From a virus (Duplodnaviria > Caudoviricetes): a stretch of 54,268 nucleotides of DNA. Position 1 is the first letter of the stretch, and each line of letters starts with the position of its first letter. The position numbers were made by a program, and so were the translations under genes. Shown in pieces: positions 51,250 to 52,330 of this stretch. Below the pieces are notes generated by a model. That model made no database searches, was not told the origin of the DNA, and saw nothing but the letters and a program-made list of their open reading frames with translations. The stretch is from the IMG/VR virus record IMGVR_UViG_3300009170_000002, positions 1 to 54,268 of that record; one strand, given 5' to 3'.

Positions 51250-52330
51250 CGTTCTGGAGGTCAACGTGCAAGTGACCACGACCTCACCCGATAACCCCGG
51301 TGACGACAGGAAGTCCCAATCCGGGTGGGTAGGAGTAACCGGCCTTCCAATCTTTTGAAAAGGGATCAACAGCCAGGGGAGGGAGCGGGTTCATCCGGGA
51401 CAACCGGAAGCGAAGCCGAAAGTCTACCCTCCACCAGAAGACCGGAGACAAATGCCGGCTCTCAAGGCGGAACCGAGAGACGTAAGCCTGTAGCTTCCAA
51501 TCCCTTTTCAAATCTGATTTTTTCTCCGAAGCCACAAGAGGAGTCCTAATGGGAACCGGACAGAATGTCGGAGATAAGAAATTCCCCAAGAGGGAACCGG
51601 TCTCGCACCACTTCGTCGTAACAGGCGAAGCAGAACCAAGAGTTCTGGGCTTCAGAGAAAAAATCAGATTGAGCACTTTCAAAGGTGAGCCAACAGACCA
51701 GTTTCGGTAAAATTCCTTTGGTCGGGAATGAGGAGCAGGAGTTTCACTCTCCAAATTGAAAACGATTGGTTCCGAACCGAAAAGTTGGCCACCGCTGAAA
51801 GTGCTCAATCCAGAAAATTTTCTCCCGTTAAGTTGGGCAACGAGTCGATCCTCTACGTCCCAATGGGTGCGACCAAGTGAGGGAAAGCGGAGTGACAGGC
51901 CATAATCCGCAACGGAGGATGACGAACGCCAATACCTCCAAAAACTTGGGAAGATCCAGCGTGATCGAGACCGTCCGCAAGTTCAAAGATTTGAACCTCT
52001 ACGAGAAGAAGCGCCCAAGTACGACGGTTATTTTGGACTCTACCGAGATTGAGTCCTACCCGATCGAGCGAGACCTAGTGGATACCCGGTTCAACTAAGT
52101 GCGGCGAGACCAACAGGAGTAAACCAGTTGGACGCTATGTTGAAAAGGAGGACAAGTTATCCACCTCGATCGGGAACTTCCAAAGTTCTCGAATGCCGCG
52201 ATGGCGAGGTTCAAAAAAATTGGAACCAGCACGGACAATCCGTTCTAAAGATGGACCCGGGTTGCCCACCAATTCACAATTGGCGGACGAAGGTTCAAAT
52301 CATTCCGCGGCAGCCGAGAAAGTTGGAAGT
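51250..52330 (+). ncRNA. Putative large structured non-coding RNA (about 1.1 kb), family unassigned
   Basis: No credible ORF with an RBS; nested long-range perfect helices 51354-66/51500-12 (13 bp), 51511-26/51655-70 (16 bp), 51667-81/51796-810 (15 bp), 52059-68/52165-74 (10 bp), plus many hairpins. Confidence 0.65.

Follow-up and report, generated by a model that had tools for sequence, protein, structure and literature searches.

The window is the whole stretch of DNA that was analysed, 54,268 bp that make up a complete virus record of IMG/VR, with terminal direct repeats of 123 bp; with a genome of this size the virus is not a giant phage. A structural and lysis block occupies the − strand at about 3.8–30.3 kb, and a + strand block extends from 31 kb onward. 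The + strand block ends with genes for thymidylate synthase, a DnaE-type polymerase (33% identical to its best cultured relative), a DnaB helicase, a primase, a TnsA-like nuclease (assigned from a weak Pfam match below the cut-off) and a 258-aa protein. In its N-terminal part the 258-aa protein is similar to nucleoside 2-deoxyribosyltransferases, a likeness recorded as a lead only. No tRNA or tmRNA gene was found by ARAGORN (default settings) in the whole 54,268-bp genome. The stretch of interest, 51250–52330, has a G+C content of 0.50–0.51, compared with 0.45 for the genome. Elsewhere the genome is tightly packed, and the only gap of at least 400 nt without a 60-aa ORF is 30327–31006. The likely origin of replication was placed at 30.3–31.0 kb, where the cumulative GC skew reaches its minimum and where 17-nt iterons and a perfect repeat of 19 bp are found; an origin in 51250–52330 was considered unlikely because the iterons and the skew minimum sit there, at about 30.5 kb.

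A promoter cassette had been reported upstream of the stretch, and a promoter-like site does occur at 51013–51040. It is one of nine exact copies in the genome, all on the + strand, the next one downstream being at 52747. Judged by its sequence, the cassette at 51013 probably starts a transcription unit. Between the two cassettes lie a 52-aa gene, the 1.1-kb stretch and a 120-aa gene, and no terminator-like site was predicted on the + strand within 50800–53000. The genes and the predicted modules of the locus (D1–D6, with mean pair probabilities P of the closing helices, or clamps) are as follows.

51013–51040, + strand: promoter-like cassette; hexamers TGTACA and TAGAAT 16 nt apart, the second preceded by TG (consensus match 9/12)
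51090–51248, + strand: 52-aa ORF, putative first cistron; one hydrophobic N-terminal helix; gene-like codon-usage log-odds of 0.203 per codon
51354–51512, + strand: D1, 159 nt; perfect clamp of 12–13 bp, three-way interior; P = 0.967
51511–51670, + strand: D2, 160 nt; clamp of 16+6 bp with one A–C mismatch, five-way junction; P = 0.888, 0.998
51667–51810, + strand: D3, 144 nt; clamp of 15+4+6 bp, branched arm inside; P = 0.827, 1.000, 0.996
51811–52058, + strand: D4, 248 nt; not significantly structured (z = −1.08, 27/200 shuffles as stable)
52059–52174, + strand: D5, 116 nt; clamp of 10+7 bp, long irregular hairpin inside; P = 0.997, 0.980
52176–52330, + strand: D6, 155 nt; clamp of 8+6+7 bp, two 2×2 internal loops, five-way junction; P = 0.975, 0.990, 0.985
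52349–52711, + strand: 120-aa ORF, putative last cistron; codon-usage log-odds of 0.287

The 52-aa ORF is present in public gene calls as a singleton cluster and has neither a Pfam nor a PHROG match. Public gene calls lengthen the 120-aa ORF to 172 aa (start at 52193). The sole relative of the 120-aa protein, P0002 (47% identity, encoded on an 11-kb contig), has a start that aligns to the residue encoded at 52349; no family match was obtained in Pfam or PHROG, and an atlas search was also empty. An intron was rejected, as P0002 starts where the 120-aa gene starts and no intron model gave a hit. The source samples are freshwater sediment. The stretch was found in contig pieces from four runs belonging to four studies, among them runs from sediment and soil dated 2017 and 2024; no RNA run was among those listed as carrying it. 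Six pieces fall inside the region and show no differences; they are short and leave parts of the region uncovered. Because the same sequence was recovered in runs from four studies, the stretch is not an assembly artefact.

According to the predictions, the stretch consists of five local modules in a row, each closed by a clamp of its own, together with about 250 nt of ordinary sequence. The clamp repeats of the five modules measure 13, 23, 21, 10 and 25 nt with 84–100% complementarity, and adjoining clamps touch or share 1–4 nt. In a partition-function calculation on a 1,711-nt transcript model (51050–52760), all five clamps have mean pair probabilities of 0.83–1.0, low values being confined to the 1–4 nt common to neighbouring clamps; the alternative long-range helices I3, I6 and I7 have a pair probability of 0.000. 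D6 ends 8 nt upstream of the Shine–Dalgarno sequence of the next gene. D1 contains no G–U among its 49 pairs. The hairpin loops of D2 are CAAGA (on two hairpins) and GUAACA (on one). CAAGA occurs three times in the stretch, compared with about two expected from base composition, and nothing complementary to the CAAGA or GUAACA loops was found within the region. No GNRA or UNCG tetraloops were seen among the predicted loops of the minimum-energy fold, a point against an RNA reading.

The preliminary description had proposed back-to-back domains closed by long helices. The helices 51354–51366/51500–51512 (13 bp, 100%), 51511–51533/51648–51670 (23 nt, one mismatch, 96%), 51667–51687/51790–51810 (21 nt, 2-nt interruption, 90%) and 52059–52068/52165–52174 (10 bp, 100%) are all present, and the minimum-energy fold contains the inner extensions, the GTGGATA/TATCCAC helix, two CAAGA loops and a GTAACA loop. 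The supposed fourth domain of about 500 nt is not supported: its closing helices at about 51816/52316 and 51835/52261 have P = 0.000, and this half splits into D4, D5 and D6. The first three closed domains thus stand as described and are joined by D5 and D6, whereas a single giant four-domain fold is not obtained.

Folding energies were compared with those of dinucleotide shuffles, a check that the preliminary description had itself proposed. The z score is −8.25 for 51340–51815 and −4.02 for 51811–52340, with 0/100 shuffles as stable in either case. For the individual modules (200 shuffles each) the values are significant at −4.26 (D1, 0/200 shuffles equally stable), −6.44 (D2), −6.60 (D3), −4.22 (D5) and −6.21 (D6), and not significant for D4 or for the preceding segment D0 (51270–51345; z = +0.69). 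In a genome-wide ranking of 449 windows of 480 nt (GC-regressed), 51361–51840 is third with z = −3.27, outranked only by windows of the 30.5–31.2 kb intergenic region. No outliers occur among 160-nt windows placed out of register with the modules (in-region mean z = −0.46), which counts against an RNA reading. Among inverted repeats of at least 13 nt with arms at most 200 nt apart in the 54-kb genome, spacers of 100–133 nt occur only in three repeats of the stretch and at 30.5–31.0 kb; the remaining ones are short-spaced operator palindromes.

Most of the excess stability lies in the near-perfect inverted-repeat clamps. With the clamps removed, the interiors of the five modules give z = −1.63, −1.56, −0.44, −2.16 and −1.00 on the + strand (combined about −3.0) and −0.38, −0.53, +0.35, −1.66 and −1.30 on the − strand (combined about −1.6). 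The interiors are therefore mildly structured, singly near chance, with a larger signal on the + strand. As they score only −0.44 to −2.16 without their clamps, the region is less 'ornate' than it looks. The − strand of 51340–51815 folds nearly as well as the + strand (z = −6.41 versus −8.25). G–U pairs make up 4.8% of 330 pairs on the + strand and 8.9% of 347 on the − strand, both below the shuffles. The clamp arms contain no G–U on the + strand and three A–C mismatches, which are G–U on the − strand. Near-pure Watson–Crick clamps of this kind run directly counter to the pattern expected of a + strand RNA under long selection, although the count is of three mismatches only.

These properties bear on a DNA-level origin of the signal, in which five MITE-like palindromic elements, or sites of DNA transactions (inversion, hairpin formation or recombination), would lie in a dispensable, fast-changing early region and RNA folding would be a by-product. 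The non-random part consists essentially of inverted repeats with near-random interiors, both strands fold about equally well with few G–U pairs, and units of 116–160 bp with terminal repeats of 13–25 bp fit the MITE range. The stretch and its neighbouring genes are also missing from the closest relatives (see below), as an insertion-prone region predicts. Against this origin, the repeats differ between units and each is single-copy in the genome, where the stretch matches only itself. Neither the D2 arm-pair pattern, searched in 185,579 species genomes, nor the D3 arm-pair pattern, searched in IMG/VR, has a match, and blastn found none in phage or plasmid records. No target-site duplications were seen at the borders, and five independent insertions abutting within 0–4 nt would be improbable. 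Apart from the weak TnsA-like match, no recombinase or transposase family was found in 29 Pfam-scanned ORFs. The likely origin at 30.3–31.0 kb lies elsewhere, and no inversion joints were seen in contigs over the region, although rare forms are lost from contigs. Miniature inverted-repeat elements of bacteria, such as Correia, ERIC and RUP-type elements, are multi-copy, have shared repeats and are often flanked by target duplications. The modules resemble them as non-coding units of about 100–160 bp with inverted repeats of 13–25 bp, and differ in being five different units, with no further copy in this genome or, for the arm pairs of D2 and D3, in the collections searched. We regard a DNA-level origin as unlikely, though the Watson–Crick clamps, the comparable fold of the other strand and the orphan status of the sequence lend it some weight.

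The absence of a convincing ORF, as first reported, was borne out by codon usage, stop counts and homologue searches: the stretch carries no coding signal. On the + strand every frame is interrupted whatever stop reassignment is assumed, stops number 32 (34.1 ± 3.8 in shuffles) and the longest open frame, of 98 codons, is below the shuffle mean. Five small + strand ORFs tile the stretch (51325–51549, 51549–51710, 51728–51880, 51877–52098 and 52128–52352), and the helices could in principle be mRNA structure within a run of genes for very small proteins. The junctions are gene-like (TAATG, GTGA, and ATGA into the 120-aa gene, with overlaps of 1–4 nt), AGGAG lies 5 nt upstream of the ATG at 51549 and 8 nt upstream of the TTG at 52128, and small orphan genes are frequent in the early region. 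The ORF 51549–51707 (53 aa, inside D2) is called by the JGI caller on four contigs and is present in public gene calls as a singleton. The codon-usage log-odds of the five ORFs (0.014, 0.084, 0.072, 0.004 and −0.056 per codon), however, lie within the distribution of 118 spurious ORFs (−0.071 ± 0.146) and below all but one of 13 comparison genes (12 at 0.13–0.29, one at 0.048). Stops are not depleted, the G+C content by codon position departs from the pattern of the genome, and the translated sequences abound in R, S, P, G and T and are poor in hydrophobic residues. The other four of the five ORFs (searched as five start variants) are absent from the public gene-call collection, and for 51877–52095, which looks spurious by its log-odds, no homologue was found. 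An open frame of 232 codons on the − strand is unusual (P = 0.0175 in shuffles); its 174-aa ORF has a log-odds of −0.065 and flat G+C by codon position, with no hit among 1.84 billion representative proteins and no Pfam match. A run of small proteins is thus very improbable.

Searches for known RNA families were carried out with Rfam 15, including the models of GOLLD and ROOL (RF01998 and RF03087), OLE, HEARO, group I and II introns, RNase P, tmRNA, 6S and Y RNA. No match at gathering threshold was found in the whole window, in keeping with the earlier statement that no family could be assigned. With E values of up to 10, 51000–52500 gave only a chance-level − strand match to Atu_Ti4 (15.9 bits versus 40 for gathering, E = 4.8). 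ARAGORN found no tRNA-like pieces at default or 90% stringency; three appeared at 80%, with broken acceptor stems, and were rejected. Enrichment of GGA as in CsrB was 1.6-fold only and mostly within stems, and this candidate was dropped. No reverse-transcriptase family, the neighbour expected of a retron non-coding RNA, was found in 30 Pfam-scanned ORFs, a scan that took in little of the − strand structural block.

The stretch appears to be a single-lineage orphan in the collections searched. Homologue collection by nhmmer had been recommended at the outset; together with blastn over 81, 119, 119 and 118 loci (437 in total), it gave no hit better than E = 0.1. A covariance model (R1) built from D2 finds itself alone in 161 loci and the records of three relatives, and does not match the other modules. 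The patterns of three CAAGAG loops and of a doubled GGGAACCGG gave chance matches only, among the matches listed. No relative of the 120-aa protein was found in viral contigs, and an alignment of this protein with P0002 (A2) found none in viral, metagenome or genome contigs. The 258-aa protein led to one locus, L004, which is gene-dense and has no match to the stretch.

Relatives of the phage were sought through DnaE. A single DnaE query of contigs found nothing, and a two-sequence alignment with the ORF of L004 was dropped, the two being just 26% identical. An alignment of 31 sequences, chosen from the best 120 of 7,996 hits, returned 80 loci, just two of them close, L005 (52%) and L006 (41%). 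The closest DnaE relatives are the proteins P0004 (59%), and P0005, P0009 and P0012, each from a Logan or JGI contig of 54–56 kb. Another 80 loci, mostly matched through generic motifs, were returned from metagenome contigs with the P0005 DnaE as the query, L204 (49%) being the only close one; the contig that encodes P0005 was not among them. L005, L006 and L204 keep the helicase and primase and are without the 258-aa, 52-aa and 120-aa genes and a comparable spacer; a gap of 465 nt in L006 has a folding z score of −0.38. This absence of the stretch and its flanking genes from the nearest relatives examined as DNA (DnaE 52, 49 and 41%) speaks against an RNA reading.

Functionless filler, made up of recent inverted duplications or palindrome-rich foreign DNA between two accessory genes, would also account for an orphan in every collection searched, for helices as perfect as those of young, uneroded repeats, for a base composition unlike the rest of the genome and for flanking genes that are both near-orphans. 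The ordered design, with five serial clamps, similar enclosed lengths and abutting neighbours, is less easily reconciled with filler, as is the tight packing of the genome, in which the gap at 30327–31006 is the lone one of its size. The identical sequence in 2017 and 2024 sediment and soil runs shows persistence, which is not proof of selection. Filler is considered quite unlikely.

The reading that we prefer, with a probability that we put a little short of even, is that of a non-coding spacer of an early transcript, folding into clamped modules that are likely RNase III substrates. Positions 51249–52348 would be the untranslated middle of an early transcript started at the 51013 cassette, in the order 52-aa membrane-peptide gene, modules, 120-aa gene. 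The RNA would fold locally in the cell while being made into D1, D2, D3, D5 and D6 (116–160 nt), each shut by a near-perfect helix of 17–25 bp. RNase III typically acts on double helices two turns long. Three of the predicted clamps that lie between the 52-aa and 120-aa genes, those of D2 (16+6 bp), D3 (15+4+6 bp) and D6 (8+6+7 bp), reach about this length (21–25 bp). Because three clamps span the size handled by RNase III, processing at the clamps is the most economical mechanism, most likely by the host enzyme. Cutting would uncouple the 52-aa and 120-aa cistrons and would release or leave stable, stem-capped RNAs of about 100–130 nt, which might serve as decoys, sponges or stabilisers.

RNase III helices are known between the cistrons of T7 early transcripts and as the leader–trailer stems of rRNA operons, and the predicted clamps resemble these as long, near-perfect helices between the genes of a polycistronic transcript. 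Known phage RNase III sites are single hairpins of about 50–60 nt, whereas here five clamps, enclosing 70–130 nt each, extend over 1.1 kb. A literature search on phage RNase III spacers gave nothing pertinent. It is conceivable, if doubtful, that the stretch represents a new architectural class, an early-mRNA string of clamped modules cut at the clamps into stable RNAs of about 100–130 nt that act as decoys or sponges early in infection. The target may then be a host RNA-binding or dsRNA-sensing factor (such as a nuclease or defence sensor, or even RNase III), and the pieces may be made in a fixed ratio with the membrane peptide and the 120-aa protein.

The stretch had also been placed in the size class of GOLLD, ROOL and OLE, and here the likeness ends at length in all but general terms: phage origin, lack of coding capacity and many predicted helices are shared as well. 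GOLLD and ROOL often neighbour tRNA genes in phages or prophages, whereas this phage has no tRNA gene anywhere in its genome. The large ornate RNAs each form one interlocked fold and are defined by covariation over many homologues; the stretch is predicted to be a linear series of clamped modules with near-random interiors and has no homologue in the collections searched. GOLLD, ROOL and OLE are non-coding phage or bacterial RNAs of several hundred to about 1,000 nt with many helices (see Kretsch et al., bioRxiv 10.1101/2024.12.08.627333). The stretch belongs to no described family. It is nearest in kind to the large structured phage RNAs and to the RNase III spacers of phage early operons, and its modular, clamp-by-clamp layout sets it apart from both.

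The value of the finding is limited, as the stretch is a single-lineage orphan and its repeats might, with low probability, have arisen at the DNA level. Should it prove to be an RNA, it would join the very few large structured phage RNAs on record as one built differently: modular, clamp-closed, embedded in an operon and free of tRNA genes and tRNA-like pieces, from an uncultured clade of sediment and soil phages that have a DnaE-type polymerase. Such an RNA would then offer a natural test case for the use that phages make of long double helices in their early transcripts.

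The gene ending at 52711, immediately downstream of the non-coding element (51250–52340), is annotated in public gene calls as encoding 172 residues from 52193, a start that would overlap structural module D6 (52176–52330) of the element. The sole relative of the encoded protein (P0002; 47% identity) begins at the residue equivalent to 52349, and the ATG at this position is preceded by GGAGG. An open frame on the opposite strand and features elsewhere in the window are listed below.

Open frames, genes and promoter-like sequences in the window
51286–51985, − strand: open frame of 232 codons, antisense to modules D1–D3 of the element
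50191–50967: gene for a 258-residue protein, directly upstream of the promoter-like cassette at 51013
44794–47775: long DnaE open reading frame, starting 58 codons 5′ of the start used in public calls and in all relatives
875, 1738, 2338, 2704, 37084, 51013, 52747, 53577 and 54031, + strand: promoter-like cassettes matching TGTACA-N15–17-TA[GT]AAT exactly

The antisense frame is longer than that found in 98% of dinucleotide shuffles. It was without a codon-usage signal, Pfam match or homologue; its length may simply reflect a + strand that is palindromic and poor in T. Three words are enriched in the element relative to the + strand background of 31–51 kb: AGGAG (six occurrences, approximately sevenfold), AGGAGT (four, approximately 21-fold) and GAACCG (four, 13-fold). 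These could be Shine–Dalgarno-like or protein-binding words.

All nine exact copies of the promoter-like cassette lie on the + strand, and several are preceded by CATTACA-type palindromes (I3, I8, I9, I15 and I16 in the genome-wide list of inverted repeats). The cassette around 52689–52754 is also present, with differences, in contigs of other phages from the sequencing runs compared. For the N-terminal 150 residues of the 258-residue protein, the protein atlas gives similarity to nucleoside 2-deoxyribosyltransferase-like proteins of phages (feature score 0.82; structural TM score 0.93 by the hit), which is treated as a lead only. Its sole relative, a shorter protein encoded at locus L004, shares 58% identity over residues 9–151.

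In public calls DnaE comprises 935 residues from 44968; because all relatives also use the equivalent start, this is probably the true one. The intein-type domain PF14890 occurs in the polymerases of some relatives (P0044, P0072 and P0119) and is absent from that of the window. Elsewhere on the + strand, the middle region encodes consecutively a radical SAM/SPASM protein, a MoxR/CbbQ-type AAA ATPase and a 715-residue protein (32674–33630 and 35533–39299), the last without a family match.

The divergent gene blocks are separated by 30327–31006, the sole gap of at least 400 nt in the window that lacks a 60-residue open reading frame. It contains at least five copies of a 17-nt word at 16-nt spacing, opposite one inverted copy, and a perfect 19-bp inverted repeat (30844/30934). 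Folding signal is stronger here than anywhere else in the genome, and the cumulative GC skew reaches its minimum here; the gap is a candidate for an origin of replication or a divergent control region.
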